Virus record (IMG/VR): IMGVR_UViG_3300045988_054519
Span: 1 to 58,288 of that record
Length of the DNA: 58,288 nucleotides
Origin: a virus
Reading direction: 5' to 3' (one strand)
Shown here: one piece after another, positions 3,771 to 58,288 of the stretch
How positions within the stretch are numbered: the stretch's first letter is position 1
Layout of the letters: the number at the start of each line of letters is the position of its first letter
The notes under the pieces: generated by a model
What the model saw: the letters and a program-made list of their open reading frames with translations, nothing else
Databases searched by the model: none
Told to the model about the DNA's origin: nothing
Made by a program: the position numbers and the translations under genes

Positions 3771-4754
3771 TTAATCAAGCTGTTTGCCGTTTTTATCGTA
3801 GATATGGTAGCCGCTTGACTTGTATCTTTTCCAAGTCTTGTACGCGCTACTCCAAGTGCAATAAGAACCGATTGCGTTCTTCTCGTCTCTGTAAGACTTC
3901 CTTACACGGTAAAATCCGTTACCGCTAGTATAATTCGGGTAGCTTGTCAGTGTCAGTGTTTTCTTTTCAACCGTCCTTGCATTCCTGCCCTCTTTACGTC
4001 CGTAGTTGCAATAATGCTCATAGTATAACGGAAGATTATCGCCAAACGCATCTCTTAAGTCGGCATAATTCTCTTTGTAGGCAATCACGTTAAATTCCGC
4101 GCTTGCCTGCCTTGCTTCTTTCATGCCGTACTGTTTAAAGTGCGCCCAAGCCTTGTCATAATCACTGCCGAAAGTCGCTTTAAGGTCAGCATATTTGTTA
4201 AGATAGTATTTCGGGTTGAATACCGGTGAATAATCAAGTCCGTTAAGCTTGTATTCTGCCGTATTAATGCCGGTAATGTCGGCATCAATGTACGGTGTAG
4301 GGTCAAGCCATTTATACTTGCTTTCATCGTGTAAACCGTTTGTCGGGATGCCGTTCGGGTACTCTCTGACCTCAAAGTGAAGATGCGCTCCGTAACTTCC
4401 GCCGGTATTTCCCGTAAAGCCGATGCGCTGTCCTTTCTTGACAAATTCGCCCTCATTTACATATACCTTTTCAAGGTGCGCGTACAAGGTGCATATTTTG
4501 TCATTATGCTTAATCATTACATAATTGCCATATCCCATTCCCTCTTTGTCCGGCACACCGTTTGTACCGGAGAGATAAGCTATAACCTTGATAACCGTAC
4601 CGTCTGAATGTGCGGTAACGAAATCAAGCTGTGATTTGTATTTTACAAGGTCTATGCCTTGCGCCCACGCATTGCCATTCTTTTTGTTATCGCAATGTGT
4701 CTTGTATGTGCAGGTAATCTGATTTACTGCATCTTCTAATACTCTACTACTCAT
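3771..4754 (-). CDS. M23-peptidase endolysin with internal repeats and a C-terminal SH3-like wall-binding region
   Basis: GYGNYVMIKHNDKICTLYAHL...GFTGNTGGSYGAHLHFEV (M23 motifs). Two copies of a Y..Y.DL...FG......HY...G..E(A/G)R repeat. Last gene of the late operon. Confidence 0.8.
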   Translation of the reverse strand: MSSRVLEDAVNQITCTYKTHCDNKKNGNAWAQGIDLVKYKSQLDFVTAHSDGTVIKVIAYLSGTNGVPDKEGMGYGNYVMIKHNDKICTLYAHLEKVYVNEGEFVKKGQRIGFTGNTGGSYGAHLHFEVREYPNGIPTNGLHDESKYKWLDPTPYIDADITGINTAEYKLNGLDYSPVFNPKYYLNKYADLKATFGSDYDKAWAHFKQYGMKEARQASAEFNVIAYKENYADLRDAFGDNLPLYYEHYCNYGRKEGRNARTVEKKTLTLTSYPNYTSGNGFYRVRKSYRDEKNAIGSYCTWSSAYKTWKRYKSSGYHIYDKNGKQLD

Positions 4755-4767
4755 AATTTTTTACCTC

Positions 4768-7700
4768 CTAAGACAATTTAAGTGTGCCGGTTAATACCAC
4801 GCCACAAGCGTCATTGTTGATTACATTCGTTGAGTTCGGCATTACTAATTGCACATTCACGCCTGATTCTCCGCTTAACGATATTGATTGAGATGTTGGT
4901 CTGACATTCGTCTCAGCCGTGGAGCCATAGCAATATTTTCCGCCTTGTCTGACCTTAATGCCCTCGCTTGATGTAAACGACAATGTAGCCTTACTTGCGC
5001 CAATAATAAGCCTTGTCGGGAGAAAAAAAGCTACCGTCTGACCGCCACCGGTTATATATCCGCCGGTAGAAAATACGATAGGTATGCTATCGCCTTTTGT
5101 CAGATATGCTTTTTCGGTTGTTTCAAAGTAAACACGTCCACCGCCGAATACTGCTCCGCCAGCTGTCAGCTTAGATGTTTCCACACTGCCGTCCCAACCA
5201 AGCCTATATACATAGTCATAGTCCGTACCCTCTTTGCCGATATACGAACATATTCCGGTCGGCTGTGCGCCAGAACTCATTCCAAACTTATAGCCACGGC
5301 TGTCTGCCTTTGTTCTTAAATAATCAGCACCGATTGTAAATCCGCCGATTGTTCCACTTGTTGAGTAAAGGTTACCTCCTTTATCGACACGGAACGGACA
5401 ATCTCCGTAATTAGTATGGTCTTTACCGCCGGCCGCAAATACCCATTTTGTGTTTACAGTCGGTCTTTGCATGACTGCTGTTCCGGTTTCAGCATCGCCG
5501 GCATAAATCTTGTTTGTTGTTATGCTCCACGAACCGATTTTAGCCGTGATTGCGCTTAAATCATCAACGCTTATTTTGTCTGCCGTGATTGTTCCGGTCG
5601 TAATTTTTCCACCGTCAATCGTTGTGGTATTCGCGGAATAGATATTCTCAACTGATATATCATCCGGATTAGGTGACCAATCTGACGGAACATTACCGAA
5701 TGACATTTTGAATTTACGGACGCTAAGAGTATGACCAGCGTTATGTTTTGTTACATATACGCCCATTCCATAACGGTACTCATTATATGTTCCCAACGAA
5801 CCGCTGTTAAATGTAGCCGGAATGGTCACTATATAGGACAATCTACACCATTTATCGTTTTGACGTGTTCCTGATAGCACTTTAAGATACCTACTTGATG
5901 AGCCATCAATATAACATTCAGTATACACTGAACTCTGCCAAGTTTTAAATCCATCATTCGAGCCGTATACTTTTAAAGCTAATGTGTAATTTAGTGGGGA
6001 GGTCTCAAGGTCATCTGCTTTGGCATCAAGGGCAAGAACAAGAGTATTCCCTGCCTGTGGATTATCTTTGGCATCAATCGTTGTGATTGTTTGTAACTCA
6101 ATCCAGCTTCCATTACCAGTTCGACTTGCGACTGTAAATCCATCATCATCTGTGGACATTGCCCAGTCACCATTTGAAGTAGATATTTTGCCAAAATCCT
6201 TTGTTGCGAGAAGTAAATTCCGGTCACCTACGGATAGATTATCTACGGTGTTTTTTATGCCTACAACCACACTGTTTGTGCTGATAGCATTAATAAATGC
6301 TTCTTGTGAAGTAATCGTTGAGATTACCGCATTATCAGCAAATATATTCGCGACATCAAGTTCATTTGCGGTTATGCTGTTTGCGACTATCTTATCCGCA
6401 TTAATCGTGCGGTCAGTGAGTACATATCCGTCTAAGCTGTCAACCGTAGTGCTTGTAAGTTCGCCGAGATTATTAAGTGCATAAAGCAATCCTTTTTCCG
6501 AACCTTTGAGAAGTATTCTATCCGCAACAAGCGTTCCTGCGGTTATCTTGTTTGCGTTTACCTCTACGCTGTCGAGAAAGCCGGTTATATGCCCCTCAAC
6601 TACGGTTGCACGGTCAATCAAGCCGACATTTGCAAACAATGTAGCCACGTTTGCGGTGTTGATATTTGTCAATTCGATATTCGCATACTTAATATCCGCT
6701 TGTTCTGCTGTCATATAGCCTAATTTAGCGGTTGCGGCGGCTAGGTTATCCGTAGTTATCGCTTTTGCGCTTAACGTGTCAAATTTGCCCGACAATGCGT
6801 TAAGATTAGCAATCGTAGCATACTTGATGTCTGCCTGCTCCGCGGATATTTTTGTCGCAATAACCTGATTAGCTGTTATGAGTTCAGCTGTCAGCCTTTG
6901 CATTTGAGATGTTATCGGGCCGGTAGGATTGATCGAATTATTTGTGTCAGACTGTCCGCAACTCTCAATCGAACATTTAAGACCGCCGTCACAATCATAA
7001 ACAATACTTGTAATCGGGGCGGAATACTCTACGCCGTCAAATGTTACTTTGACAATATCCCCGACTTCAAGTCGCCAATCGCCGAGACATTCAACCGTAA
7101 GCGGTCTATAAGTAAAACCGCCTATCTTCTTGTATACGGCATCAAGAACCGCCTGCGTCATAAACGGATTAGATATGTTGATTGCCATAGTACCGCTACC
7201 GCTTGTAAGGGTTTTGCTGTCGTTATCCGTAGCAACCTCACACACTATCTTCTCGACCTTAAAAGCCTTGCTTGTTGTGAACTTTAAGCCGTTCTCATAG
7301 TATTTTGTCGGACGTATAGTGTAATCAGCGTCTTTGTACCACCGAAATTCAAGCTGTCCTTGTGAATTAATGACAGCATTTTTACCCTGCCTTGCCGACA
7401 GATAACCTAACATTTCGCGCCTTGTATATCCTTTTGGGGCGGTCGCAATGGATATTGTCTTATCGTCCATTGTGCTTTCAACAAACGTGATACCGGCTTG
7501 TGTGCATATCTCCTTGACGATATTAATATCTTTGTTCGGATATTTCAGTTTTGACACATACGTCATTTCCATCGCGCTGTACATACGGTCATATCCGGTG
7601 TAAGATGTTTTCCCCTCTTCCGCCGTGGCAGATGTTATCTTAAATATTCCGATTTGGATATATTCTATGTTGCCATCTGACACCTCTAATCCTTCGAATA

Positions 7701-9061: not shown

Positions 9062-12000
9062 TTAGACCGGAAACGGACTCAATCCCGTGACCGTAGCATA
9101 TTTTTCCGCGCCTTTTTGAACCACTTTAAATGTTCCCATTTCGTTCGGCTCAAATTCCACGCCTACTTGTACGCTGCTTGATTGTAATGCGCGCGTCATT
9201 CCGTTAAATGCGGCACTTTCAATCTCGGCTGATATGTCAACACCAACACTTGATTTTATAGCCTCTGTGGTCACATTTGACGGTGTATAACTTATGTTTG
9301 CACTGTTAATCTGCGGTGTAGCCGTATATGTTGTCTGTTTCGCCCAATCGGACATTATCTTTCGGGTACTATCTATTTGGTCTTGAATACCATTATTATA
9401 TCCCTCAATGGTATAAACACCGTATTCCTCAAACACCTTTGACGGAGAATGTATTCCAAGTGTTTTCTTGAAAGCATTTTTAAAGGAATTAGCGGCAGAA
9501 ATAATCGTATTTTTTGCTCCGCTAAGCGTTTCATTGTTTTCAAGTCCTTTTTTAAGACCTGCCCATATGTTCTTACCATAAGTAACAAAGCCGTCATAAT
9601 TGAATGTTTTGCCAAAATAATTACCTATTGTAAGCATTGATGAATGTACAAGCACCGCGGTTTCTCTCAGTTTCTTACCGATATACGAATTTGCCCCAGG
9701 TAATGTATTACCCATATTAGCAAATCTCTGACGTGTAGCATTAATGTTGTTGTGCATTGTCTGCATTACGCCGACGGTTGTAGTCTTCATTCCGGATAAG
9801 CTTTTATTAATGCTTGCGGTCGCATTCGCTGTCGCGTTAGCCTGATCAGTTGCATTATTAACGTATTCATTCGTATAATAATCTTCATCTGACATAAGCT
9901 GCTTATAGGTAGTCTGTAAGTCGGTATACGCGCCGTTTATCTCTTGATAGTTCTGATTAGCTTCAAGCCAAGCCTCTTCCGCACTATCTCTTAACTTCTG
10001 TATGCGGATTGCTTCATTGTTGGCTTTTTCCCATTCCTCTTGTGAACCGCTCATAAGAAGTTCATCAGCGCGTTTTTTAGCTTCATTGTACTGTTTATTG
10101 TACTCTCTAAGTTCTGCCGCTGTATTCAGCCATTTTTTACGCTTATCCGTATACTCATCTTCCATATCGTTGAGTTTCTTTTGCGTATCATACATATCTT
10201 CATATGTTTTAGTGAGTGCTTTTTGGGCGGCTTCGGTTTTGGCTTTCTTTTTAAGCTGTGCTATATAGCTTTTAAGGTTTTTCGCTAAATCCTCGTAGCT
10301 TAAGTTTTGGTCATCAAGTATGCTTTGCAATTCCGGTGCCTGATCTACCATAGCATCGTGATACATCTGCATTTTGGCTTGCTCTTCATTTGTAAGCTGT
10401 TCTTTTCCGGCAAGTTCAAGATAGCCGTCCGCCAAAGTGTCTAGTGCTTTAAAACTGTATTCTGTCTGGCTGTACTCCTCTAATGTTGCCTTAGAGTTTG
10501 ACATTATAGTATCAACATAGCTTGTTGTATCTTCAACTAACTTCTTGACACTTTCAGATACACGGTCGGCGTGCAAATATTCAATACGTTCCGTGTATTG
10601 CTCCATACCTTTTTGAACATCGCTGTTCATCTTAAGCATTACCGCCGCAAAGGCAGCCGGAATAAGCATTAATGGGCTTTTTAAACCTTGTAAGATTGCA
10701 TCTCCTGCTACATACCCAAGGTTCTGCGCGCCGGTTGTTGTTGCCGTTGCAAGTGCCGTATTTGAAAACGCCGCTGTAATGCCTATCTTAAGGTTTTTAG
10801 CAAGTGTTGCGCCTAATCCGGTAAACTTCATTACCGCAAAAGCCGTGATAATTGCTGTTTCAAACGGTGCCGACTCAAACGCTCCGAACCAAAGTTCCGC
10901 TAACATCTTCCATATATTGAATTGAAGTTTTAATGCAGATTTTAAAATTTTAGGCCAATTAAGTCCGGCAAGGAAATCTCCGATGTTGTTACCGATTTTG
11001 TACCAATTTACTTTCTCAATCGCTTCACTAAAGAAGTCAAATATACCTCTTACAAGCTTCGATACATCTTTACCAAGTGTAAGGTAATCCCCTATTTTGA
11101 TATCTTCAATCATCTTTTCAAAAGGTGCGGTAAACTTCGATAATTTATCCGCCCACTTTTGTGAGTCATTCTGCATATTCGCAAAGGCTTTGTTCCAAAC
11201 CTTTTCGTAATCTTCCGTAGCCTTAAGGATTTCGTCTGTAAGGTCAAGCGTGTCTTTTGCGCCTGCCGTTTTGCCGTTGCTCGTATCGCTCTGTTCCGTA
11301 AGCTTATTGATTTCATCAAAACCCATAAGCTGATTTTGCCACTTTTTGGCAGCCGCGGCTGCATTATCGTAGCTGTCCGCAACATCATCCACGGCACCGC
11401 TTTCCTCTTTGTAACCGCTTTGACCGAAACTTTCAAAGTCAATCTTAATTCCCATAAGGGACGCAATGTTTACTAGCAGTCGCTTAACCGCAATCGTAGC
11501 ACCGTTGATAACCGGTAAAACCTTTTGCAACATCGGTATAAACAACTGACCTAATACCATTCCGGTCTCCTTAAAGTTCGTGCTAAGCTGACGTATCATA
11601 TTACTTGGCGAATTTATTGTATTAGCTAAATCGCCCCACGATACTTTGCTTTGGTCGAGAATTGCAAGAACTCTTAATTGCTGCTTTTCCATCTGCGACA
11701 TTTCGCTTATGGATTTTTCGATGCCTAAATTATAGGCATATGTCTGTAATGTAGCATTCGTTATATCAATGCCGTACTTGTACAATGCCCTTGATTGACC
11801 GATTAAGCCACTTTGTAAGTTCGTTGCTACCGTTGAGTAATCAACATTAAAAAGTGAACTAATATCGCCTGCAAGCATTGTCATCGACTTTGCTATCGCG
11901 GTCGTTGTCTCTCCGCTCTGCCCTAATGAGTTAGTTACCGATGCAAGCTGTGACGCATATTGCGTAACCTCTTGTATATTCAGTCCAAGGTTTTTTGCAC

Positions 12001-27695: not shown

Positions 27696-27769
27696 AACTC
27701 ACACATAGATGGTTTTGGGATAATACAGACAACCAACAACTATATTCCCATTTCGTTTATATGTGAAAG

Positions 27770-27852
27770 CGCAGATGCAAGGAGTCGAACCTTGACGGCA
27801 TTTCTGCCGGATAGCTTAGCAAGCTACTGTGATACCATTACACCACATCTGC
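27770..27852 (-). tRNA. tRNA-Ser(GCU): tRNA-Ser (anticodon GCU), type II
   Basis: Hand fold: GCAGATG/CATCTGC acceptor, 3-bp D stem, GTAGC-TTGCTAA-GCTAT anticodon arm, variable arm CGGCA-GAAA-TGCCG, CAAGG-TTCGACT-CCTTG T arm. No encoded CCA. Confidence 0.85.
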
Positions 27853-28859
27853 ACATTTTGGAACGGCAAGTCCCTACTACTACAATACCTATCTTGCCAT
27901 TCCAAAAAGTAAAACATAATTAAGATTTCTCTTTATTCACCATACATACAGCCATATTCTGCCACTGTGACGACAAGTCCGAGCCTTTGGGAGCGACCCT
28001 AAGGCTTCTTGCCGCTTTCAAGCACACGCGGGATTGATACCCACAAATTTCACGGTTCTTTCGGAATATTATCGTGTTCGCCATTCGATAATTGTTAGAA
28101 TGAAATCGTGCCATACCGCTACTTTAACGAGTTACTTGTGTTATATTCGGATTTCTCCGGTTTCAAGGCACACTGCTTAATTTGAGATTTTCCGTGATTT
28201 GTCCGTGGTCTCTCATTCCACGAACTTCAACGGATTATTCCTACACCGTAGGCGTCTATTATTCACAGCCACAAGTCCTCTGCCCTTGGCTTCTCTATGA
28301 TGATACACCACGCAAGCATTGTTGACGGTTTCCGTCTCCCTGCCGTACCTCACAGTACAGCAAAAGATATTAGCATATCCGGTATCCCGATTATGCCTAT
28401 CTCGTTTTCTCGCGTGTCTCGGCAAGGCTGAAAAACCTCTCTCCACCGAGATAATCATGTTTTAAACAAAACGGCCGGAGTCGGACCGGCATCAAGGTCA
28501 GAAAGGATGAAAAAACCTTTGCTTCGCCAATTAAGCTACGTTTTGCGCCGGTATGCAAACAACCGCACGTCTGCATACCACATACTTTTAAGAGGAGTTA
28601 TAACATGTCATCCGCCTATCACGGAACGTGGGAAACAAATAAAACCACGGGTTGATTTCCACAATGCCGTTTGTGTGCAGTGGGATACGCACACAAGCAG
28701 ACATCTTAATGTTCTGTCCGAACAAACCCCGCCGAACCGTCTCTCACGGTTCTTAACAGAATAGTCCTAGCGGAGAAAGGGGGTTCATGATAAATATGGA
28801 ATACAGATATATCATGTGGGGAAGAGCCATTCAGCCGTCCATCTGAACCTCTTCCCGAA
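27853..28859 (-). ncRNA. Candidate large structured ncRNA (GOLLD/ROOL-like class or novel), about 1 kb between two tRNAs
   Basis: No credible ORF on the transcribed strand. Many perfect 7-11-bp helices (see finding). Contains an embedded tRNA-like element and looks more G+C-rich than its flanks. Confidence 0.45.
28466..28545 (-). ncRNA. Embedded tRNA-like element with an aberrant anticodon region
   Basis: CAAAACG/CGTTTTG acceptor, GCTT-AATTGGCG-AAGC D arm, GCCGG-TCCGACT-CCGGC T arm. The anticodon stem is either AAGGT/ACCTT enclosing a 16-nt loop, or AAAGG/CCTTT with 9-nt loop TTTTTTCAT. Confidence 0.45.
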
Positions 28860-28930
28860 CGGGAGCAATGGGAATTGAACCCATATCCCGGCAGTCAAAG
28901 TGCCGTGTCTTGCCATTAAACGATGCCCCT
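28860..28930 (-). tRNA. tRNA-Gln(UUG): tRNA-Gln (anticodon UUG)
   Basis: Hand fold: AGGGGCA/TGCTCCC acceptor (A1:C72 mismatch, G4:U69), GTTT/AGAC D stem, CGGCA-CTTTGAC-TGCCG, ATGGG-TTCAATT-CCCAT. No encoded CCA. Confidence 0.8.
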
Positions 28931-32882: not shown

Positions 32883-33113
32883 CAGCGTATCTGTTTTTTT
32901 ATTGGTCGGCAGTAGGACTGGTGTACCCAAAATCTGAAATTGTTCAGAACCGTCAAAAAAATTTTCGGAAATTTCACACAAAAATGGAAAAATGTTGAAA
33001 ACGGTTTTTCTAATTTAAAAAGTGCTACCCAGGGGGGTATTTTGAAAAAGGCATTATAATTTTGCAGAAAAACAAATTCTAAAAAACTTAAAATTGCATT
33101 TTTATAATAAAAT

Positions 33114-33908
33114 TCAAGTACCCAATGGGGTATTTTTGCGGTTGACTTGTTTTTTGCTTTGAACTGTTTTTATATCTTCCAACGCTTCTTCTATGCTCAT
33201 GCCCTTTTTTATAACTCTAAGGTACAATCTACTATATGTAGTTCCGTTAGATTTTGCTATATCTTTTAAATTAAACTCTTTGCCGTTGATTATAAAATTT
33301 TTAGATATTCTTCTATTCATAACCTGTTCTTTAGATGTCGCCCACCTGCAGTTATCAGGGGAATATCCATCATTGTTATTTATACGGTCAATAGAAAGAC
33401 CATTTCTATATCCATTATCAATAGACCATTTGTAAAAGTAAAAAAAACCGTCTTTTCCGCTCCATTCATCGCATACTCTTATTCCTCTTCCACCATACTT
33501 TTCATATCTAGTGTTTGATTCTAGTTCGCACCTTGAATGCATTCCAATAAAAATTTTATATATACTTAAATTTGAATATTTTTTAGGAACTCCACAAAGT
33601 TCTTTCATATTTTTTCTGTGCAAGCGCACTTTTTTTGTATGTTGTGACTTAATACTTGACGAGGTATATTTGTTGCCAAAATAGCAATTATCAGGGCAAT
33701 AATTTTTTGATCCATCTTTTCTATTCAATCGTAGATTTTTATTCCAACCGTTTTCTTTACACCATTTTCTAAATTTTTCTCTGTCTTTCCATTCATCGCA
33801 GACCTCAATTCCTTTAGCACCGTAATCCTTATAAGCTATGGATTTCTCATTATAACATCTTTTCATCATTTCATAATGCAAACCACCAATGGTATCTAAA
33901 TTTGCCAT
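33114..33908 (-). CDS. Homing-endonuclease-like protein (duplicated HNH/AP2-like DNA-binding module plus C-terminal HTH)
   Basis: Two copies of Y..YG(A/G)(K/R)GI.VCDEW......F..W...NG(W/Y)...L(S)(I/L).R...(D)G.Y.P.NC. Second copy ends RWATSKEQ. The segment is very AT-rich. Confidence 0.55.
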   Translation of the reverse strand: MANLDTIGGLHYEMMKRCYNEKSIAYKDYGAKGIEVCDEWKDREKFRKWCKENGWNKNLRLNRKDGSKNYCPDNCYFGNKYTSSSIKSQHTKKVRLHRKNMKELCGVPKKYSNLSIYKIFIGMHSRCELESNTRYEKYGGRGIRVCDEWSGKDGFFYFYKWSIDNGYRNGLSIDRINNNDGYSPDNCRWATSKEQVMNRRISKNFIINGKEFNLKDIAKSNGTTYSRLYLRVIKKGMSIEEALEDIKTVQSKKQVNRKNTPLGT

Positions 33909-33943
33909 TATAAGCACCTACCTTTCTAATATCTATTATAACA

Positions 33944-33986
33944 TACTTTATAAAGTATTGCAACATACTTTAAAAAGTAGTATAAT
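33944..33986 (+). promoter_or_regulatory. Promoter with two tandem palindromic operators
   Basis: TACTTTATAAAGTA (33944-57, perfect palindrome), TTGCAA (33958-63), TACTTTAAAAAGTA (33966-79, inside the spacer), TATAAT (33981-86). Confidence 0.65.
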
Positions 33987-34006
33987 TCACAAAAAAGGAG
34001 AACGTC

Positions 34007-34222
34007 ATGTCAAAGTCGAAAACATCAGCAGAAGTTAAAAATAGATGGAATGAAAAAAACTATGACCGAATAACTGTTATGGCACCAAAGGGCAAAAAAG
34101 ATGAGTGGCTTGCTTTAGCGAAAAAGAAAGGTTTTAAGGGTCTGAATGGATTTATTATTGATTGTATAAATAATTGCACAGAAAACCAGTGCAACGCGAA
34201 AAAAGTTTCAAAAAAAATTTAA
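34007..34222 (+). CDS. Arc/RHH-like small DNA-binding protein (antitoxin-like)
   Basis: SAEVKNRWNEKNYDRITVMAPKGKKDEWLALAKKKGFKGLNGFIIDCI matches the common ribbon-helix-helix pattern K..Y..I....PKG.K......A...G.S.N.FI. Confidence 0.55.
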   Translation: MSKSKTSAEVKNRWNEKNYDRITVMAPKGKKDEWLALAKKKGFKGLNGFIIDCINNCTENQCNAKKVSKKI

Positions 34223-34240
34223 ATTTTACGGAGGATATAT

Positions 34241-34507
34241 ATGCCATTAATAAATCATCAAGGGGAGAGAATTTCATACGAATGTGAAGATTTAATCAAG
34301 GAATTAGAGAATGATATTGCTGAATTTGGTGGCGATATGATAGTAGATGTCGTTACTATGAGGGCGAAAGGTGTAACACTCTACATTGATTACAATTTTG
34401 CCGAAGAGGGGAAACCGCCATTTGAATTGAGAGAATATGAGAGCCACAAATTGATGAAAGCATCTATGCTGTTGGCTTTACTGAAAATGGAAAATTCTAT
34501 ATGTTAA
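34241..34507 (+). CDS. Hypothetical protein, downstream partner of the RHH gene
   Basis: 88 aa. ATG lies 7 nt after GGAGGA. Confidence 0.5.
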   Translation: MPLINHQGERISYECEDLIKELENDIAEFGGDMIVDVVTMRAKGVTLYIDYNFAEEGKPPFELREYESHKLMKASMLLALLKMENSIC

Positions 34508-34541
34508 AAGGGATATGACTTTTGCCATATCCCTTATTTTC

Positions 34542-35246
34542 TTACTCTATAAATACTATCGGTGCATCGCCGTCAAATAATTTGCTGTCTATCTTCTGCC
34601 CTTTGTCCGCCCAAAGGCACCGCACCTTTTCAAAACGTCTATGCTTTCTTACAATAGTGTATCGGTTATTCAATGAATAAACCGTGCCGAGACAGTTGCG
34701 GCCGAATTTGTCTACCGGTATATATGCCGGTTCTGATAATTCTCCGGTTCGCGATTCGTCATACTCCGTTAAGTCGATTATCTCAACACTTTGTATGTCA
34801 CATAAATCGCCATATTCGCCCAATGACGGATAAATCGGTGGATTGGTTAATGCTTTGCATATCGTATTCAAATCCTCATCATCAGCCTTGATGTAAATTG
34901 TCAGATTAAGGTCGGTAAGCATCGCATGATTTTTTATAGCTCCTACCCAACCGGCATGTGAGCCATTTTCGTCATCTGTAATAATATCCCATCGCTTTTT
35001 TGCATCCGCATTTACCGTTTTAAAATGATAACCGCCTTGCCATTCACGTCTGACCTCGGTATTCATAATTCCCTTGCCGGAAATAAAGAAGTCTAAAGGA
35101 TGATAGGATGTCCACTGGCATAAATTGTGTATCAGGCCACATACTGTACTGAATGGCGGTAAGGGGTAGCAATCTGCTCCGCACGGTGCCATATGGTCTC
35201 TAAAATGTGCCATTTGCTGGAATGTCTTTAATTTTACCACTTTCAT
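34542..35246 (-). CDS. cas5: Cas5-like (type I-B/Cas5t-like RAMP) protein, solitary
   Basis: N-terminal KLKTFQQMAHFRDH......YPLPPFSTVCGLIHNL (the Cas5 A.FR...Y..PP.ST..G pattern), mid-block LTIYIKADDEDLNTICKALTNPPIYPSLGEYGDLCDI, about 234 aa. No other cas gene or CRISPR array in the window. Confidence 0.6.
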   Translation of the reverse strand: MKVVKLKTFQQMAHFRDHMAPCGADCYPLPPFSTVCGLIHNLCQWTSYHPLDFFISGKGIMNTEVRREWQGGYHFKTVNADAKKRWDIITDDENGSHAGWVGAIKNHAMLTDLNLTIYIKADDEDLNTICKALTNPPIYPSLGEYGDLCDIQSVEIIDLTEYDESRTGELSEPAYIPVDKFGRNCLGTVYSLNNRYTIVRKHRRFEKVRCLWADKGQKIDSKLFDGDAPIVFIE

Positions 35247-35272
35247 ATATATTCGTACCTCCGAAAAGTAAT

Positions 35273-35299
35273 AAAAGTCATAGATAGCCTATGACTTTT
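35273..35299 (-). promoter_or_regulatory. Perfect 11-bp hairpin plus T-tract in the cas5-like 5' leader (attenuator-like)
   Basis: AAAAGTCATAG-gctat-CTATGACTTTT followed by ATTACTTTTC, then GGAGG and the ATG. Confidence 0.5.
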
Positions 35300-35375
35300 C
35301 CATAATGTGTCTATTTATTATATGATTTAAGTAAATCTTTACATTCCAAAATGGATACTATTAATATTTGCTATT

Positions 35376-35404
35376 ATAATACAGTGCAATCTGCTATTTG
35401 TCAA
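35376..35404 (-). promoter_or_regulatory. Near-consensus promoter dedicated to the cas5-like gene
   Basis: Minus strand TTGACA (35404-35399), 17 nt, TATTAT (35381-35376). Confidence 0.65.
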
Positions 35405-35406
35405 CA

Positions 35407-35544
35407 CTATTTTTTATCCGCCGTAGATATAATGAGTGCCTTTGCTCCGTATTCAGATTTCCCGATTTCTTCACGAATTTTGTTTTCAGTGATTTCTGGA
35501 TTAGTTTTCTGCACCCTTTCATAAAGTGCCTTAAGGTCAATCAT
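35407..35544 (-). CDS. Small hypothetical protein (45 aa), translationally coupled to the metallopeptidase
   Basis: ATGA overlap with the stop of 35541..35864. My translation: MIDLKALYERVQKTNPEITENKIREEIGKSEYGAKALIISTADKK. Confidence 0.45.
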   Translation of the reverse strand: MIDLKALYERVQKTNPEITENKIREEIGKSEYGAKALIISTADKK

Positions 35545-35864
35545 AATGCCCTCCTTAGTACATTTCTTATAATTTCATCAGCCATATATACAATCTGTCT
35601 GCCGTACAGTGACATAAAGTCGGCGACTATTTCCTCGGTCTTGATGTCAAGAAAATATCCGTACTCAAAGGCATATGCGTGTGTGAGTTCGTGACATAAA
35701 ACTTTATCAAACATACGGTCAGACAGTCCTTGCTTAATGTATATTGTCTTAACATTGTTGTCCGTCACACCCAAAGTGTATACACCGTCACTGCGGATTA
35801 ATAATTTATTATGCCCGTCTACGGCTTGTATTCGCCATAATGAGCCGTTTATCTCAATTAACAT
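35541..35864 (-). CDS. Zn-metallopeptidase-like protein (ImmA/IrrE or SprT-like HExxH)
   Basis: VLCHELTHAYAFEYG motif in 107 aa. Confidence 0.55.
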   Translation of the reverse strand: MLIEINGSLWRIQAVDGHNKLLIRSDGVYTLGVTDNNVKTIYIKQGLSDRMFDKVLCHELTHAYAFEYGYFLDIKTEEIVADFMSLYGRQIVYMADEIIRNVLRRAL

Positions 35865-35931
35865 AGATTTCCTCCAACATCATACAAACCGCCGTGATAA
35901 CGTCAATATGCGCGTTACCACGGCATTGTAG

Positions 35932-36522
35932 TTACATCTTTGTGACTAATGTTGACAGTTTAGATTTTGCCAAGGCTTTCTCTTCTGCTGTCATACCGTC
36001 AATCATGTCTGTAATGTCTCCGGCAAGTTCCTTGATGTACTCATCAAGTGCTTTCATCTTGTGCTCTTTATCTTCCTTTGTGTTCTCGCGGTGCATATCC
36101 CTAGTTTCGGTGTAATGTCTCTTCGCCGTGTCGTAGCGGCTTTCGGTTCTTCCGCTATCCATTGTTGCCGGCTCTGTAAAGTACATTCTGCCATAGGATT
36201 TATCCATATCGCGGTACATCTCCGGTGTCATATGCCAATAAGGCGGTTCTTCATAGCCGTGTCTGCCGACATATGTTCCTTTGCCCTTTGGTGCAAATCT
36301 TCCGGTTGTTTTATAGCGGTAATCGTCATAGAAATGTCTGCCGCTATCTTCTTCCATTTCCTCTGTAAGGACACGGTAATACATAGCTTCGGCAAGGTCT
36401 TTGAGCATATCTGTAACTTTACCCATTTCGTCCGCGTCAATGTGCTCTGTTCCCTTGTCAAGTTCAGCTTTGGCGCACTCTGAAAGTTTTTCTATCATAT
36501 CGTGCATTCTTGATACGTCCAT
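35932..36522 (-). CDS. Hypothetical charged protein (Tyr/Arg/Met-rich centre)
   Basis: 196-aa ORF. ATG follows GGAGGTAG. Confidence 0.5.
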   Translation of the reverse strand: MDVSRMHDMIEKLSECAKAELDKGTEHIDADEMGKVTDMLKDLAEAMYYRVLTEEMEEDSGRHFYDDYRYKTTGRFAPKGKGTYVGRHGYEEPPYWHMTPEMYRDMDKSYGRMYFTEPATMDSGRTESRYDTAKRHYTETRDMHRENTKEDKEHKMKALDEYIKELAGDITDMIDGMTAEEKALAKSKLSTLVTKM

Positions 36523-36533
36523 ACTGCTACCTC

Positions 36534-36959
36534 CTAACCTACGCGATTAACCGTGATGTTGGCATTTGCCACACTGATCGCCTGCGTTGAAGTGTTCTTA
36601 ACAGACACTTGCTCACAACATCCGCAAGGGAGCCATACATCCGTTGCCATAGCGACATTGTTGAACTCTTCTACTGCCGCCGGAGTAGAAATCGCAAGTG
36701 TTGATAAGTCCGGTTCTCCGTTTATTGCAATCGCAAGAGAGATTGCTCCGGCTGTTCCGCCGGTAGGCACCGCGATGTTACCGGAAAACTCTACTCTGTA
36801 CTTTGCGCGACAGCTGTTAGTCGCACCTTTAACCTGTATCTGACCGCTACCGGCTCTATGCATAATACAACCTTTGTTGCAGCTAGATGTTGTGTCTGTG
36901 AATAACACATTACTGTTTGCCGCTACAGTCTGTGCGGCAACTGTTGAAAATTCTGCCAT
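36534..36959 (-). CDS. BclA C-terminal / C1q-TNF-like jelly-roll protein
   Basis: Pattern AQTVAANSNVLF...YRVEFSGNIAVPTGGTAGAISLAIAINGEP...ISVANANITVNRV resembles the exosporium BclA/BclB C-terminal domain. ATG 36959 follows GAGAGGAAAG. Confidence 0.5.
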   Translation of the reverse strand: MAEFSTVAAQTVAANSNVLFTDTTSSCNKGCIMHRAGSGQIQVKGATNSCRAKYRVEFSGNIAVPTGGTAGAISLAIAINGEPDLSTLAISTPAAVEEFNNVAMATDVWLPCGCCEQVSVKNTSTQAISVANANITVNRVG

Positions 36960-37032
36960 TTTTCTTTCCTCTCTTTCATAAAATAAAAAAACCACCAACT
37001 GAATATTAGTTGATGGTTTAAAAATCCATTAT

Positions 37033-37347
37033 TTACTTTTTGTAGTCTGTCGCACACATTCCTATGCATTGCGGAGTTCCATATTTTTCAATATAATCTT
37101 CATCTCCGTATCGTTTAACACAAACATACATTGTATCGTGCCAATTTGTTCTCGCATCTTCTATTTTTGAAGTATGGTCAATTACAATGTCTGATATTTC
37201 AAATGGTGCATTTGCCGCTCCTATCTCTTGGCAAAAGTCTTTGTGAATTTGGTATATGTATTTTTTCATATCATCAAAGTTTTCAAATTCCCTTGCTGTT
37301 TTTAGGGATTCAGCTAATCCACCTCTATGTTGTCTGAAAATAATCAT
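37033..37347 (-). CDS. Hypothetical protein
   Basis: 104 aa with its own promoter-like TTGATG-17-TACAAT and a terminator on each side. Confidence 0.5.
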   Translation of the reverse strand: MIIFRQHRGGLAESLKTAREFENFDDMKKYIYQIHKDFCQEIGAANAPFEISDIVIDHTSKIEDARTNWHDTMYVCVKRYGDEDYIEKYGTPQCIGMCATDYKK

Positions 37348-37563
37348 TCTGGCACTCCTTTCTTTTTCGGAAATTGTACCACAAATTTAAAAATCCATCA
37401 ACTTAATATTCTGTTTTCAATGTGCAAAAGGGCAAACCATACAGTCTGCCCTTTATCTTCCCGACATTTGTGTCGGTAACATCAAGTAATACTGCTTAGC
37501 AGACATAATCGAGTTAAACTCAATTAAGATACTCAATTATTCATTTTTGCGTAGCTGCTACTT

Positions 37564-38331
37564 TTAGCAGCCACATCCGGTATTGCATCCACATCCGTAA
37601 GCATAAGCGTTAGGATTAGGAACAACATATGCCGGAACAGCCTGAGGATTAACTGCGTTGATAATCTGGCTTGCCTGTGCGTTCATAGCTGTAGTCAGAA
37701 GTGCGTTCTGTCTATCCTGCGATGCGGCAAGCCTTAAGCTGTTGTTTTCTGCCTGCAATGTGGCTATCTTGTCCTGGCATAAGTAGTCAAGGATTGCCCT
37801 TGTGCCTGCGTTCTGCGTGTCGATAATGTCCCTTGTGTTGCTGTTCATTGTGTTCTGCAATGCGCAAGTGTTGGTTGCCATATTGTAGTTGACATTCTGA
37901 ATGGCCTCACGGGTTTCACAGCAGCAATTTGCAAGCTGTGACTGTAAAGCATTGGTATTCTGCATATTAGCGACCGTATCGGCGTTAATAGCCTGCTGAA
38001 TACCGTATCCGGTCTGCATAATGTTTGTGTTTATGCCGTTAAAACCGGTCAGCATACTGTTGTTTGCAGCATAAAAGCCGTCACATAAGCCGTTAGTTAT
38101 GCCGTCAAGTTTGCTGATAACCGCGGAATTGTCAAAACCGCGCTGAATTTCTGCTCCTAATCCGTTGCCGCCATTGCCACCGAAACCGCCGAAGCCATTG
38201 CCCCAACCGCCAAAGATAGCAAATATTACGACTATGAACCAGAGCCATCCGCCGTCAGTCCATCCGCCGTTGCCGTTGTTACCGTCAATATTGGCGACCA
38301 AAGGTACGGATGCACAATTTGAATTAAACAT
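37564..38331 (-). CDS. Gly/Asn-rich membrane protein with a Cys-rich C-terminus (spore-surface-like composition)
   Basis: GGWLWFIVVIFAIFGGWGNGFGGFGGNGGNG TM/Gly block, N/Q/T-rich helical middle, C-terminus YAYGCGCNTGCGC. Confidence 0.55.
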   Translation of the reverse strand: MFNSNCASVPLVANIDGNNGNGGWTDGGWLWFIVVIFAIFGGWGNGFGGFGGNGGNGLGAEIQRGFDNSAVISKLDGITNGLCDGFYAANNSMLTGFNGINTNIMQTGYGIQQAINADTVANMQNTNALQSQLANCCCETREAIQNVNYNMATNTCALQNTMNSNTRDIIDTQNAGTRAILDYLCQDKIATLQAENNSLRLAASQDRQNALLTTAMNAQASQIINAVNPQAVPAYVVPNPNAYAYGCGCNTGCGC

Positions 38332-38392
38332 AATTTTTACCTCCGAAAAAATTTATATACTTAACCTTGCAAGAATTAGTATCAAAATGATG

Positions 38393-38626
38393 TCACTGAT
38401 TGCCAAATTTACCCTTTACCTGATTAAATACCTCGTCCGCGTTCAGGCCTTTTTCTTTGCATAAGTTCCGCGCCATTTGTTCTACGCCTTTCATATTTCC
38501 GCTTTGTACCATCCCTAAAGCATTCTTCATGATAGGATTACTCATCATCTGATTATTCCCCATCATCTGCTGTATGAACTGTTTCGGGCCAGCTTTCATC
38601 ATCTGAAAAATGTTAATTGGGTTCAT
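38393..38626 (-). CDS. Small Met/Asn/Gln-rich protein
   Basis: 77 aa. Start overlaps the upstream stop. Confidence 0.5.
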   Translation of the reverse strand: MNPINIFQMMKAGPKQFIQQMMGNNQMMSNPIMKNALGMVQSGNMKGVEQMARNLCKEKGLNADEVFNQVKGKFGNQ

Positions 38627-39144
38627 TCTTCCTCACCGCCTTTGCTTTGAGTTCTTGAATTTTTCCTTTGAGCTGCTAAAGATTTATCAAACCTATCTTC
38701 TAATTGCCCGATTTTCTCCGAGAGTTCATTAAACTTATTCAGAAATAGGTCTGTGCTTTCGTCTGATAGGGTAAATTTAAGTTTTTCCGTGTTTGCCGTA
38801 GAATTTACCGTGTCAATACTTTTTGTGTCTATATGGGGCGTATACACGATTGTCTTAATCGTTCCGTCTGCATTCCATCCTTTGACGTAAATTTCCGATA
38901 AATCCTGCTTTGGGAAAAATGCCATTGAACCGTCCATAGGCACCTCATTGGCATTAATGTTGTCAAGGCTCTGTACAACCCTGCCGTTAATACCTATTGT
39001 CTGCGGTGCTACCGACATCTGCGCCGGCACCATCTGTTCCGGCTGTGCCTGATACCTTTGCATATTCGACATAGATGCGTATTGATATGGGTTATACTGC
39101 GGTACATAGCTGTTAATCTGCTGCTGATAAGGATTGTTTATCAT
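38623..39144 (-). CDS. Gln/Tyr/Pro-rich protein with a C-terminal coiled coil
   Basis: ATG 39144 follows GAGGAGG. MINNPYQQQINSYVPQYNPYQY. Confidence 0.55.
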   Translation of the reverse strand: MINNPYQQQINSYVPQYNPYQYASMSNMQRYQAQPEQMVPAQMSVAPQTIGINGRVVQSLDNINANEVPMDGSMAFFPKQDLSEIYVKGWNADGTIKTIVYTPHIDTKSIDTVNSTANTEKLKFTLSDESTDLFLNKFNELSEKIGQLEDRFDKSLAAQRKNSRTQSKGGEEE

Positions 39145-39265
39145 CTTCTGCCTCCTCACTTAAAACCTCTTCTATCGCGTGAATTACGGATGACTGTGTT
39201 TGCAAGTCCAACCGTTGCAATTCTTTCCGTGCGAAAATCTTCTCTAAAATTTCATCTGAAAACAT
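39113..39265 (-). CDS. Small acidic hypothetical protein (50 aa)
   Basis: ATG 39265 follows GGAGGACGG. My translation: MFSDEILEKIFARKELQRLDLQTQSSVIHAIEEVLSEEAEDDKQSLSAAD. Confidence 0.4.
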   Translation of the reverse strand: MFSDEILEKIFARKELQRLDLQTQSSVIHAIEEVLSEEAEDDKQSLSAAD

Positions 39266-39439
39266 AGATTGCCGTCCTCCTTATGCTTAAATTTTGGCAT
39301 AAAAAAAGCCGCTTAACGCGACACATAAGCGACACAAAAGCGACATCAAGTTCAGATATTCAATTTTCGAGTGTTAAAAAATGCGATAAATACGGCGTTT
39401 GCACTAACTGTATGCCATTGGCACAGCGTATAGTTACTG

Positions 39440-40807
39440 CTAAAAATTCTTCAACTGAATTTCGATGTTGTCATTGACAATAACAATTTTAGATATTATA
39501 GTTTTAAGTATCTTATTTTTGGTTTGCTTGTCGATTTTGTCCCAAACGTCGGCAAGCTTTTTTATATTGTCATAGACAAATTCTTTCTTCTGCGTGTTCT
39601 TTGCCGCCTTGCTTTCCTCTTCAATCGCGGCGGTAATACGTTTTACTTCCTCTTCCGCCTGCTTAATCAACTCAATTACAGTGTCATTGCCCTCGGCATA
39701 AAGGATATACAGTCGTTTTAATTTGTTTTTCTCGCGGCTTAATTGTGACTGCATTATCTGTAATTTCGTTTCCTTTTCTTTTGGCTTGTATTTCGACAGA
39801 TTGACGGATATTTCAAGCATCTGTTTCTCTACCTGCTTTTCAATGTCTGACGCCCACTGTGGTTTGCTGTCGCAATCGTGGTTATAATTCGGAAGATAAT
39901 CAAGGTCTATGTTCTTTGAACAACAATATATTTTCCTTGGAGAGTCCTCTTTTTGCCCCCATTTCTGGTAGCGCATCGCACAACCACATACGCCGCAATA
40001 GCATAACCCCGTTAAAAGGTTGGTAGGGTGTGCAATCCAACTCTTGGCATCGTGCCTTGACTTTCTGATCTCCTGCGCAAGTTCGTAGCGCTCGATGTCA
40101 AATATCGGTTCGTGTTTGCCTTGATACACCTTGCCTTTGTACGGTATCATTCCGATGTTTACTACACTTGTCAAGATTTTCCGCGCTACCGGCTCACCGC
40201 TGTAATGGCAAATTCTAGCGATACGGCCGTCCGAATACCCATTGATATACAATTCAAGTGCATTCCTTGCCGTTTCGGCGCGCTCCGGAATTGGTATTAA
40301 AATACCCAATTCTTTATCATATGAATAGCAGAATGGCAAATTGCCACCGCCCATCCAAAAACCTCTCTTGACACGTTCCAACATTCCACCGCGCATACGG
40401 AGCATCATAGTATTTCTGTCATACTCTGCTACGGCAGCCATAACCTGCGTCTGAAATTTATCCTGCGGTGTTTCGTACCTAGCGAAATCGTGAACGCTTT
40501 CTACGCAAATTCCCTTTGGCGTAAAGATTTTTTCAATCATATACAGCGCATCCACGGTATCACGCGCAAGTCTGTCTAGCTTGTAGACAACAATAACGTC
40601 GATTTTAGCCATATCAGATATAAGCCTTTGAAGTTCAACACGTTTTGACATTTCCATTCCGGATAATCCGGCATCGACATAATACTCCTTGATAATCAAT
40701 TGATGTTTACGGCAATATTCGTCAATGTCACGTTTTTGGCTTTCAAGTCCGTAACCTTCCTCCGCTTGTCTTTCTGTAGAAACTCTTATATAAGCAACAC
40801 ATTCCAT
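39440..40807 (-). CDS. int: Large serine recombinase (phage integrase)
   Basis: YIRVSTERQAEEGYGLESQ catalytic-Ser resolvase domain, recombinase domain, Zn-ribbon CYCGVCGCAMRY...YCCS and C-terminal coiled coil. 455 aa. Confidence 0.9.
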   Translation of the reverse strand: MECVAYIRVSTERQAEEGYGLESQKRDIDEYCRKHQLIIKEYYVDAGLSGMEMSKRVELQRLISDMAKIDVIVVYKLDRLARDTVDALYMIEKIFTPKGICVESVHDFARYETPQDKFQTQVMAAVAEYDRNTMMLRMRGGMLERVKRGFWMGGGNLPFCYSYDKELGILIPIPERAETARNALELYINGYSDGRIARICHYSGEPVARKILTSVVNIGMIPYKGKVYQGKHEPIFDIERYELAQEIRKSRHDAKSWIAHPTNLLTGLCYCGVCGCAMRYQKWGQKEDSPRKIYCCSKNIDLDYLPNYNHDCDSKPQWASDIEKQVEKQMLEISVNLSKYKPKEKETKLQIMQSQLSREKNKLKRLYILYAEGNDTVIELIKQAEEEVKRITAAIEEESKAAKNTQKKEFVYDNIKKLADVWDKIDKQTKNKILKTIISKIVIVNDNIEIQLKNF

Positions 40808-49889: not shown

Positions 49890-50348
<459 letters not shown>

Positions 50349-57769: not shown

Positions 57770-58288
57770 CTATTCTTCTTCATTCCATTCCACAATTTCG
57801 CCATTCTTCATCGTGTACCATGTATTAGGTTTGATGTCCTTACCGTCAACCTGCACCATTTTCGCGCCTTTGAGTTCCCAATATTCTGGTTTCCAATACT
57901 GGCTGTCATCGCCTTCCCAATCCGCCAATACAAGGTGAGAACCTAAAACGCCTTTAGCTCTACCGCGATAGCCCCATGCGACAGCCACGGCATCTTTGTG
58001 ATCAGCTGACGATGCGCCTTTATATCCGGTGGCTGACGATGCGCCACAAGAACCGGTGGCTGACGATGCGCCGTAAGAACCGGTGGCTGACGATGCGCCG
58101 TAATATCCGGTGGCTGACGATGCGCCGTAATATCCGGTGGCTGACGATGCGCCTTTATATCCGGTGGCTGACGATGCGCCGTAATCTCCGGTGGCTGACG
58201 ATGCGCCGTAAGAACCGGTGGCTGACGATGCGCCGTAATATCCGGTGGCTGACGATGCGCCTTTATATCCGGTGGCTGACGATGCGCC
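57770..58288 (-). CDS. DUF7666-like tandem-repeat protein, repeat and C-terminal part (continuation of 535..1)
   Basis: The frame G(x)YGASSAT continues into ..GASSADHKDAVAVAWGYRGRAKGVLGSHLVLADWEGDDSQYWKPEYWELKGAKMVQVDGKDIKPNTWYTMKNGEIVEWNEEE*. Confidence 0.7.
   Translation of the reverse strand, partial: GASSATGYKGASSATGYYGASSATGSYGASSATGDYGASSATGYKGASSATGYYGASSATGYYGASSATGSYGASSATGSCGASSATGYKGASSADHKDAVAVAWGYRGRAKGVLGSHLVLADWEGDDSQYWKPEYWELKGAKMVQVDGKDIKPNTWYTMKNGEIVEWNEEE
58003..58288. repeat. 27-bp tandem repeat (about 10 units), the same family as 1..199
   Basis: Same unit, with variable segments tttatatcc / acaagaacc / gtaagaacc / gtaatatcc / gtaatctcc. Confidence 0.95.

Follow-up and report, generated by a model that had tools for sequence, protein, structure and literature searches.

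We analysed a 58,288-nt stretch of viral DNA (IMG/VR record IMGVR_UViG_3300045988_054519, positions 1 to 58,288; hereafter the window), which carries a gene resembling cas5 of CRISPR-Cas systems, preceded by a promoter and a structured leader. An initial annotation of this DNA had described the gene as an independently promoted moron and had proposed that its product acts as a dominant-negative anti-CRISPR (Acr) or is co-opted for another RNA-guided or defence role. From sequence comparison, we conclude that the cas5-like gene is most likely the protein half of a module of Lachnospiraceae phages, in which a Cas5 mimic is paired with a mimic of CreR, a host Cas-regulating RNA, and that the pair would switch off the type I-B defence of the host. 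We hold with moderate confidence that the locus as a whole is a two-part anti-CRISPR operon aimed at that system. The locus contains the following features.

35376..35404, minus strand: sigma-70-type promoter (-35 TTGACA at 35404-35399, 17-nt spacer, -10 TATTAT at 35381-35376)
35337..35368, minus strand: psiR1, repeat-like unit AATATTAATAGTATCCATTTTGGAATGTAAAG, written AATATTAATAGTATCCATTTTGGA-ATGTAAAG
35319..35336, minus strand: psiS, 18-nt pseudo-spacer ATTTACTTAAATCATATA
35298..35318, minus strand: psiR2, ATAAATAGACACATTATGGAA, the first 21 nt of the repeat, to about the expected Cas6 cut site
35299-35273 with T-rich tail 35272-35263, minus strand: intrinsic-terminator-like hairpin AAAAGTCATAG-GCTAT-CTATGACTTTT
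35258..35262, minus strand: GGAGG, read from the sequence as the ribosome-binding site, 11 nt before the ATG
34542..35246, minus strand: cas5-like gene; its 234-aa product is homologous to type I-B Cas5 (Cas5t) but diverged, and belongs to a clade specific to viruses and mobile genetic elements

The near-consensus promoter TTGACA-17-TATTAT pointed out in the initial annotation was the best sigma-70 match (11/12) across positions 33000-39500, and it was also present in relatives at 56% and 79% protein identity. The leader hairpin with its T tract was likewise recovered, with 12 base pairs in the hairpin scan and 11 in the fold. Transcription is predicted to start at about 35369-35368, i.e., at the first base of the repeat-like unit. 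The last eight nucleotides of psiR1 (35344-35337, ATGTAAAG) are those of the 5' handle of type I-B CRISPR RNAs (crRNAs), and in psiR2 the 3' handle part is supplanted by the terminator stem. Real type I-B repeats were taken from the arrays beside the nearest genomic Cas5 genes (e.g., GATTTAATAGAAACATAGTGGAATGTAAAT), and a gapped profile of 14 such repeats scored 23.4 bits at 35337-35368 on the minus strand. This was the top match of the window, the next one scoring 13.6 bits; under a Markov null, the maximum per 58 kb had a mean of 13.4 (standard deviation 2.8), the highest of 40 runs reaching 22.1. Across 90 related phage loci, the top match of the profile fell in the same leader and on the same strand in 86. 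A 1-nt indel kept an ungapped repeat matrix from detecting the leader, and a search of the leader against Rfam, at the gathering threshold and at E ≤ 10, returned no family, CRISPR direct-repeat families included. Judged by these signals, the leader is a degenerate mini-CRISPR, that is, a crRNA-like RNA gene. The statement in the initial annotation that no CRISPR array occurs anywhere in the genome holds for canonical arrays, as neither suitably spaced direct repeats nor an Rfam match to an array was found in the window, but it overlooked this degenerate repeat/pseudo-spacer/repeat unit.

The unit was preserved among divergent relatives while its details varied. The pattern AATAG..CAT..TGG.A was invariant in six divergent leaders, and relatives kept a hairpin and T tract at the terminator position with unrelated stem sequences. 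When the window was compared with the 79% relative, about 10% of the positions in the RNA parts were different, against 0.57 differences per synonymous site of the gene. In the 56% group, L093 and L092, the predicted transcript starts almost at the handle (ATGTAAAC, ATGTAAAG, ATGTAAAA); L094 (protein P0016) has a full psiR1, a 20-nt psiS and psiR2; and in L007 (P0014) the unit stands downstream of the gene with its own promoter and terminator.

What the pseudo-spacer might recognize became apparent from a metagenome scan with the pattern CCN plus the seed of the window psiS, which gave at least 120 matches. One of them, on a 198-kb contig (L207), lies 64 nt upstream of the cas6 gene heading a cas6-cas8b-cas7-cas5 operon. 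The site, CCT-ATTTATTTAAATCATATTGACAG (given also as CCT-flanked ATTTATTTAAATCATATT), agrees with the window psiS at 17 of 18 positions and overlaps the -35 TTGACA of the cas6 promoter. The sole mismatch is at seed position 6; positions 6 and 12 are non-pairing positions in type I Cascade. About 100 nt upstream of the target, on the other strand and outside the search pattern, L207 has a CreR of its own with the handle ATGTAAAG, identical to that of the window, and the pseudo-spacer ATTTAATTAAATCATATTC. The two pseudo-spacers are identical at 16 of 18 positions (ATTTAATTAAATCATAT in L207 against ATTTACTTAAATCATAT in the window), including positions 1-5 and 7-17. The Cas proteins of L207 had their closest counterparts in Lachnospira, Butyribacter, Roseburia and Eubacterium, as in a Lachnospiraceae-type I-B operon. 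This locus on a metagenomic contig is a candidate for the cognate host type I-B operon envisaged in the initial annotation; its Cas5 is 32% identical to the cas5-like protein, which is 30% identical to the Listeria anti-CRISPR AcrIB3. No self-target of the pseudo-spacer was found in the window, and searches with 12-nt seeds of the window psiS in 80 genomic I-B loci yielded AT-rich noise only and no promoter target. A second pattern match (L263), fitting the variant of the 79% relative (L091), was set aside; it has no cas6 and may be due to chance.

Similar arrangements were common in host genomes. In at least 17 genomic I-B loci, psiR1-psiS-psiR2 units were located just upstream of cas6, and the psiS seed matched a site with a CCN flank in or close to the cas6 promoter, which is the layout published for CreR. 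Between these host CreRs and their targets, eight pairs had a mismatch at position 6 and two had one at position 12. The Bacillota loci with a CreR-like unit and a CCN target were L103, L113, L119, L118, L135, L142, L157, L163 and L165, and further L169, L175, L102, L104, L152, L156, L129, L132 and L207. Other phages of the family matched other hosts: the psiS of the 56% group (AATTGATAATTAATATATC...) shares its first 17 nt with the CreR of Lachnospira eligens, whose target is CCA-AATTGATAATTTATATTGACAT, and the psiS of L007 is identical to the CreR of Butyribacter intestini at 20 of 21 positions, its psiR2 being that of the L. eligens CreR. Moreover, spacers from arrays of Lachnospira hominis, Roseburia and B. 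intestini matched phages of the cas5-like family, two B. intestini spacers targeting the L007 phage, indicating that these I-B systems target phages of this family. The predicted hosts are Lachnospiraceae with type I-B systems.

Cracrs are viral mimics of CreR or CreA that steer Cas effectors to cas or creT promoters, occur also as arrays, and cooperate with Acrs (bioRxiv 10.1101/2024.10.29.618823). In keeping with that class, the window has a psiR-psiS-psiR unit on a virus outside any CRISPR-Cas locus. At least nine nucleotides proximal to the protospacer-adjacent motif (PAM) are common to the viral and host CreR pseudo-spacers, both between the window and L207 and between the 56% group and L. 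eligens, and L207 holds a PAM-flanked partial target at a cas promoter. The leader RNA thus fits the Cracr definition as a putative copy or mimic of a host CreR, because its psiS matches the cas6 promoter site of L207 at 17 of 18 positions and the CreR of that locus closely.

The product of the downstream gene is a genuine, diverged type I-B Cas5 homologue, lone and phage-borne. The Cas5 hallmarks quoted for the 234-aa frame in the initial annotation were present and conserved in the family, and profile searches agreed with them. The protein matched NCBIfam TIGR01895 (cas_Cas5t) over residues 1-215 with E = 3.1e-23 and 82.5 bits, below the curated cut-off of 96.7; TIGR02593, the generic Cas5 N-terminal domain, was matched above its cut-off (22.7 bits against 17.8), Cas5b models of PADLOC were matched with a best E of 3.5e-26, and Pfam Cas_Cas5d scored 19.1 bits only, under its cut-off of 23. 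A sequence search of PDB gave a weak N-terminal match only, and a fold search was needed to show the likeness to Cas5. An AlphaFold2 model obtained from 11 family sequences had a predicted local distance difference test score (pLDDT) of 75.9 and a predicted template modelling score (pTM) of 0.74. When it was compared with PDB by Foldseek, the top nine matches, all with E ≤ 0.001, were type I Cascade or Cas protein entries with TM-scores of 0.4-0.5, indicating a RAMP/Cas5 fold. The best match was 8fcj_A (type I-B CRISPR-associated transposon Cascade, chain named Cas5; E = 3.6e-6), and other leading matches were 7tr6_P (type I-A Cascade) and 6c66_M; the chain identities of matches other than 8fcj_A are as we presume them. 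The protein shares with type I-B Cas5 (Cas5t, TIGR01895) its fold, length and core motifs (YPLPPxST..G..H..C, SLG...D and Y.P), whereas its gene stands outside an operon, its score falls under the curated cut-off, and host-invariant residues are replaced. As the initial annotation had stated, the gene is solitary: when the 94 open reading frames (ORFs) called in the window were searched against PADLOC (E ≤ 1e-5; 25 of the 27 matched families listed), the Cas-family matches were to Cas5 models alone and came from the cas5-like ORF alone.

A word-indexed protein search returned 12-15 family clusters at 42-96% identity. The family is encoded on 117 IMG/VR viral contigs, those listed being mostly 26-61 kb long, and a prophage within a contig of 407 kb (L001) contains one member. 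In an HMMER search, a family representative scored 471 bits, the next two 240 and 225, and the scores then fell continuously from 174, i.e., the family grades into ordinary Cas5b. A first genome scan with strict family motifs gave no match. The nearest relatives among genomes (80 loci, one genome per GTDB species) were 27-37% identical, and 77 of the 80 sit in cas6-cas8b-cas7-cas5-cas3 operons; P0015 (37% identity) is flanked by a Cas7 C-terminus and an HD-helicase Cas3. Four I-B loci of Bacilli and 'Tenericutes' (L097, L106, L124 and L167) carry a short CRISPR array between cas5 and cas3, besides the array after cas2. When 95 sequences were placed in a neighbour-joining tree, the nine of the viral core formed a clade in 30/30 bootstraps, and the addition of the orphans P0014, P0016 and P0017 gave a 12-member viral clade that was still recovered in 30/30. 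This clade leaves out AcrIB3 and all 83 compared Cas5, which comprised 79 from genomic loci together with those of L207, Listeria and P0015, all operon-encoded except at three orphan loci. tblastn matches named 'Listeria phage LM 4-11-1 / 4-14-1' (OR846720.1 / OR848150.1, L297) were rejected as AcrIB3; they represent an ordinary cas8b-cas7-cas5-cas3 operon in an unverified record (UNVERIFIED_ORG) and are probably host DNA or a phage with a full system.

The dN/dS within the family was 0.08-0.19, indicating that the cas5-like protein is under purifying selection. Compared with the 83 Cas5, the protein kept YPLPPxST..G..H..C, G57, R85, G99, P136, SLG, D147, Y175, P177, R203 and D225. R144 is replaced by E and E146 by G, which turned SLGRxED into SLGEYGD in the core clade, and the viral residues occurred in none of the 83 host proteins. 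H118, present in 98% of hosts, is Y here, and at further nearly host-invariant positions H86 is replaced by W, S54 by F and Y69 by W. The IHI and SLGRxED motifs, invariant in operon-encoded Cas5, are accordingly absent from the cas5-like protein. As Tyr stands in place of the conserved His118, we regard a Cas5d-like RNA-cutting role as unlikely. The loss of residues invariant in operon Cas5 would agree with the dominant-negative anti-CRISPR idea of the initial annotation, for which AcrIB3 is a precedent; that idea was incomplete, as the RNA partner had been overlooked. The other suggestion made there, co-option for another RNA-guided role, came closer to the mark than expected, given the leader RNA.

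The association between gene and RNA was not limited to the arrangement in the window. Lone cas5-like genes adjoin a CreR-like unit in at least six arrangements: the unit precedes the gene within one transcript, follows it under a promoter of its own, follows it as an array of two or of at least four pseudo-spacers, or follows it in convergent orientation. The three genomic relatives outside operons (L099 and L101 from Eisenbergiella metagenome-assembled genomes (MAGs), and L100 from Clostridiales) are the closest genomic relatives of the viral clade, and each has a CreR-like unit immediately downstream of its orphan cas5-like gene: two pseudo-spacers of 17-18 nt in L101 (~10710-10870), at least four in L099 (~2150-2350), and one on the opposite strand in L100. 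The array spacers of L099 and L101, 17-18 nt long, are variants of TTAAT(T/C)(G/A)TT.T.TAT. These arrays of several pseudo-spacers suggest multiplexing against several cas-promoter variants. On this evidence, the initial description was right about a lone phage cas5 gene, whereas the supposed plain leader appears to be a crRNA-like RNA gene and the conserved unit a gene-RNA pair rather than an isolated moron.

The comparisons establish a predicted handle-bearing RNA gene, a match of its seed to a cas6 promoter with a CCN PAM, and a selected Cas5 homologue without the host-invariant residues. For the function of the locus, we infer loading of the RNA into Cascade, repression of cas genes, replacement of Cas5 and a block of the CreR feedback, as follows. 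The near-consensus promoter would drive an RNA of about 100 nt consisting of the 8-nt handle ATGTAAAG, the 18-nt pseudo-spacer, the 5' 21 nt of the repeat and the terminator hairpin. Loaded into host Cascade, this RNA would direct the complex to the CCN-flanked target at the -35 box of the cas6 promoter, where the complex would repress the whole cas operon while the RNA competes with immune crRNAs, in line with the published Cracr mechanism. The terminator at 35263..35299 would end the small RNA and attenuate read-through into the cas5-like gene; read-through, or Cas6 cleavage at psiR2, would then yield the cas5-like mRNA. By analogy with AcrIB3, the cas5-like protein would most likely take the place of Cas5 in Cascade and produce complexes incapable of interference, and the RNA would stop the CreR feedback from compensating with a burst of new Cas proteins.

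Several points weigh against this two-part reading. The profile score of the protein lies under the curated TIGR01895 cut-off, and AlphaFold2 confidence was low at residues 14-25 and 63-108, which makes interface predictions unsafe. The host of the window phage was assigned from one metagenomic contig, which a psiS-derived pattern picked out among at least 120 matches, and none of the 1,852 sampled host spacers matched the window phage, the matches being to relatives only. In addition, an AcrIB3-style block of all DNA binding by Cascade would also disable Cracr-guided repression, so that a simple 'poison subunit' model or a simple 'Cracr' model would need modification. There are two conceivable ways out: the short guide may give complexes that escape the mimic, as reported for AcrIF24 with I-F Cracrs, or the mimic may be a working part of a repressor-only complex.

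The second way out corresponds to an alternative that we regard as possible but rather unlikely, in which the viral Cas5 is the dedicated partner of the viral RNA. It would bind the 5' handle and, on the short guide, nucleate a hybrid complex together with Cas7, Cas8b and Cas6 of the host, acting as a repressor of the cas6 promoter without licensing Cas3. The pairing of gene and RNA is kept over 41-100% protein identity and six genomic arrangements, and the handle is strictly kept in every unit, for which this alternative would require a Cas5-type handle binder. The pseudo-spacers are short (16-26 nt), implying non-standard small complexes; the conflict between an Acr that blocks DNA binding and an RNA that needs it would be removed; and a Cracr and an Acr mutually tuned via spacer length provide a precedent (bioRxiv 10.1101/2024.10.29.618823). 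However, host CreR works with host Cas5, so that a viral Cas5 is not obviously required, the viral handles are canonical without sign of altered specificity, and the lost R144, E146 and H118, invariant in functional Cas5, look more like loss of function. With similar reserve, we consider that the orphan viral Cas5 of the whole clade might be obligate partners of viral CreR mimics, forming a virus-programmed mini-Cascade that silences the cas operon and does not recruit Cas3. If true, protein and RNA together would take over a CRISPR effector instead of simply inhibiting it.

It is improbable that the RNA is a Racr-like decoy soaking up Cas6 and Cas7, with an incidental promoter match, beside a cas5-like product that inhibits independently in the manner of AcrIB3. 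Decoys made up of a solitary repeat unit behind a promoter are known, one of them lies in the same transcript as an acr gene (PMC10651486), and the repeat-like parts alone could bind Cas6. In the case of RacrIF1, an RNA without a 5' handle, Cas5f and Cas8f were absent from the subcomplex and changes to the handle barely altered inhibition (PMC10651486). A Racr would be a repeat mimic with no guide function and no 5' handle; unlike RacrIF1, the unit described here has its handle and an 11-17-nt seed as its best-conserved parts, and the seeds match host promoters, tracking host CreRs and CCN-PAM promoter sites in three independent phage groups. Still less credible, and in our view very unlikely, is a virus-borne mini-CRISPR with its own Cas5 directed against competing phages or plasmids, or a decaying remnant of a captured cas operon. 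Virus-borne mini-arrays in conflicts between mobile elements have been described in the literature, and the unit does have the repeat-spacer-repeat form. Yet a mini-CRISPR of that kind would carry a full-length spacer against another mobile element, whereas the pseudo-spacer is 18 nt rather than about 35 nt long, matches a host cas promoter, and is conserved across phages 0.2-0.6 synonymous substitutions per site apart. The cas5-like gene is moreover under purifying selection. The idea that it is part of a cas operon truncated here, which the initial annotation had named as grounds for abandoning its proposal, was rejected: six neighbourhoods were read among the 117 viral contigs, and none held another recognisable cas gene or a fuller operon.

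The two-part anti-CRISPR reading brings together parts of known kinds. According to Katz et al. (bioRxiv 10.1101/2023.06.24.545427), AcrIB3 of Listeria is a Cas5 homologue that co-purifies with Cascade and blocks target binding, and 358 orphan viral cas genes were tabulated. The table includes the 56%-identical relative L061 (IMGVR_UViG_3300029054_000005), with Lachnospira as the predicted host. The claim of the initial annotation that either proposed role would be novel hence goes too far, a Cas5-homologue anti-CRISPR having been published and this relative already tabulated. The cas5-like gene resembles AcrIB3 in that it stands alone on a mobile element and encodes a full-length type I-B Cas5 homologue, the identity to the cognate Cas5 being about 30-38%. 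It differs in that the window protein is just 30% identical to AcrIB3, which falls outside the 12-member viral clade (30/30), and AcrIB3 keeps SLGRxED and IHI (R, E and both His), which the core viral clade has lost. A linked crRNA-like RNA is not mentioned for AcrIB3 in the text of Katz et al. that was searched.

The RNA has the degenerate repeat/pseudo-spacer/repeat form of Cracrs, a psiS copying host CreR, a PAM-flanked site at a cas promoter, arrays (L099 and L101) and a link to a protein Acr. The Cracr study (bioRxiv 10.1101/2024.10.29.618823) tested types V-A, I-E and I-F, whereas I-B candidates were only listed; its partner Acr was AcrIF24, and the word 'Cas5' is absent from its text. 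Unlike AcrIF24, the partner here is a Cas homologue expected in the very complex that the RNA needs. Host CreR keeps the 5'-handle part in psiR1 and the 3'-handle part in psiR2 (bioRxiv 10.1101/2023.03.10.532045). The window copy shares its architecture, handle and a near-identical pseudo-spacer, but whereas host CreR adjoins cas6 and serves autoregulation, the copy is on a phage, behind a strong promoter, and fused to a terminator and the cas5-like gene. RacrIC1-AcrIC5 joins a repeat-derived small RNA and a protein anti-CRISPR under one promoter in one transcript (Camara-Wilpert et al., Nature 2023, PMC10651486). Unlike RacrIC1, the RNA of the window combines a handle with a seed and a promoter target, Racr being taken, from the term 'solitary repeat unit', as a guide-less repeat decoy. 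No paper joining viral Cas5 homologues with Cracr or CreR was found in the literature searched, in which the fixed pairing of a Cas5 mimic with a CreR mimic appears to be new.

The window comes from the gut and represents a temperate phage of about 58 kb; Pfam matches among its ORFs include an SPP1-type portal, major capsid protein E, M23 peptidase, SSB, antirepressor and Lar. The following features lie around the module.

34007..34222, plus strand: 71-aa small protein (phrog_13890), convergent with the cas5-like gene, with a homologue beside the orphan cas5-like gene of L101
34508..34535, minus strand: hairpin GGGATATG-N8-CATATCCC, just past the cas5-like stop codon, with T-rich runs on both strands
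39440-40807: large serine recombinase (integrase), 4.2 kb from the cas5-like gene

The hairpin past the stop codon was reported on the plus strand in the hairpin scan, and its minus-strand reading (TTTT after the stem) was taken from the sequence; we read it as bidirectional because it is common to the cas5-like gene and the convergent plus-strand genes. The phrog_13890 homologue (38% identity, pairwise E = 3e-12) is directly upstream of the orphan cas5-like gene in L101 (~9815-9990; Eisenbergiella MAG). The protein may be a regulator of the module of the anti-CRISPR-associated (Aca) type, its membership of the module being tentative. Directly upstream of the promoter, at 35407-35864 on the minus strand, are a 45-aa ORF and a 107-aa metallopeptidase resembling M78/ImmA (phrog_1233; weak matches to Pfam DUF6782 and Peptidase_M78). 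Most relatives (L001-L006, L091 and L093 compared) retain these two together with the cas5-like gene as a triad. A conserved block further upstream on the minus strand encodes a 154-aa phrog_20016 protein (36534-36998), which presumably resembles a BclA C-terminal-type domain, and a 255-aa Gly/Cys-rich phrog_16490 protein (37564-38331). In the 79% relative, an ArdA anti-restriction gene (L091, 9947-10450) lies 1.2 kb downstream of the cas5-like gene, which fits an anti-defence neighbourhood. In L001, the prophage with the 56% relative may be inserted in a sigF-like sporulation sigma gene, because it begins right after a STAS (SpoIIAA-like) gene, a HATPase (SpoIIAB-like) gene and an 85-aa Sigma70_r2 fragment (4306-5432).

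Elsewhere in the window, a full-length ROOL RNA (RF03087, 366 bits; 27902-28474) lies within a tRNA cluster (27769-28930, minus strand) comprising tRNA-Ser (27769-27852), tRNA-Lys (28465-28546) and tRNA-Gln (28860-28930). Each end of the window bears a tandem array of a 27-bp unit (CGCCGTAATATCCGGTGGCTGACGATG-like), with seven copies at 1-189 and ten at 58015-58284; circularity or terminal redundancy of the contig is probable, one array then running across the junction. A perfect (TCTG)x12 microsatellite (49913-49961) inside an ORF on the minus strand (49890-50348) is a possible slippage or phase-variable site.

The module would join two ideas in one transcription unit, namely that cas genes can be turned into anti-CRISPRs and that host Cas-regulating RNAs can be copied to silence cas promoters, and it raises the question of how a Cas5 look-alike coexists with an RNA that needs a working Cascade. 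The data also imply that CreR autoregulation is common in type I-B systems of Lachnospiraceae. An orphan cas5 beside a unit of handle, short spacer and half-repeat could serve as a search rule for type I-B anti-CRISPR loci in gut viromes, and matches between pseudo-spacers and promoters would link phages to hosts. The interest of the finding lies in the recurrent coupling and not in the lone Cas5 itself: Cas5 mimics are found paired with CreR mimics again and again in many gut phages and prophages of Lachnospiraceae, suggesting that the two parts of the module depend on each other.

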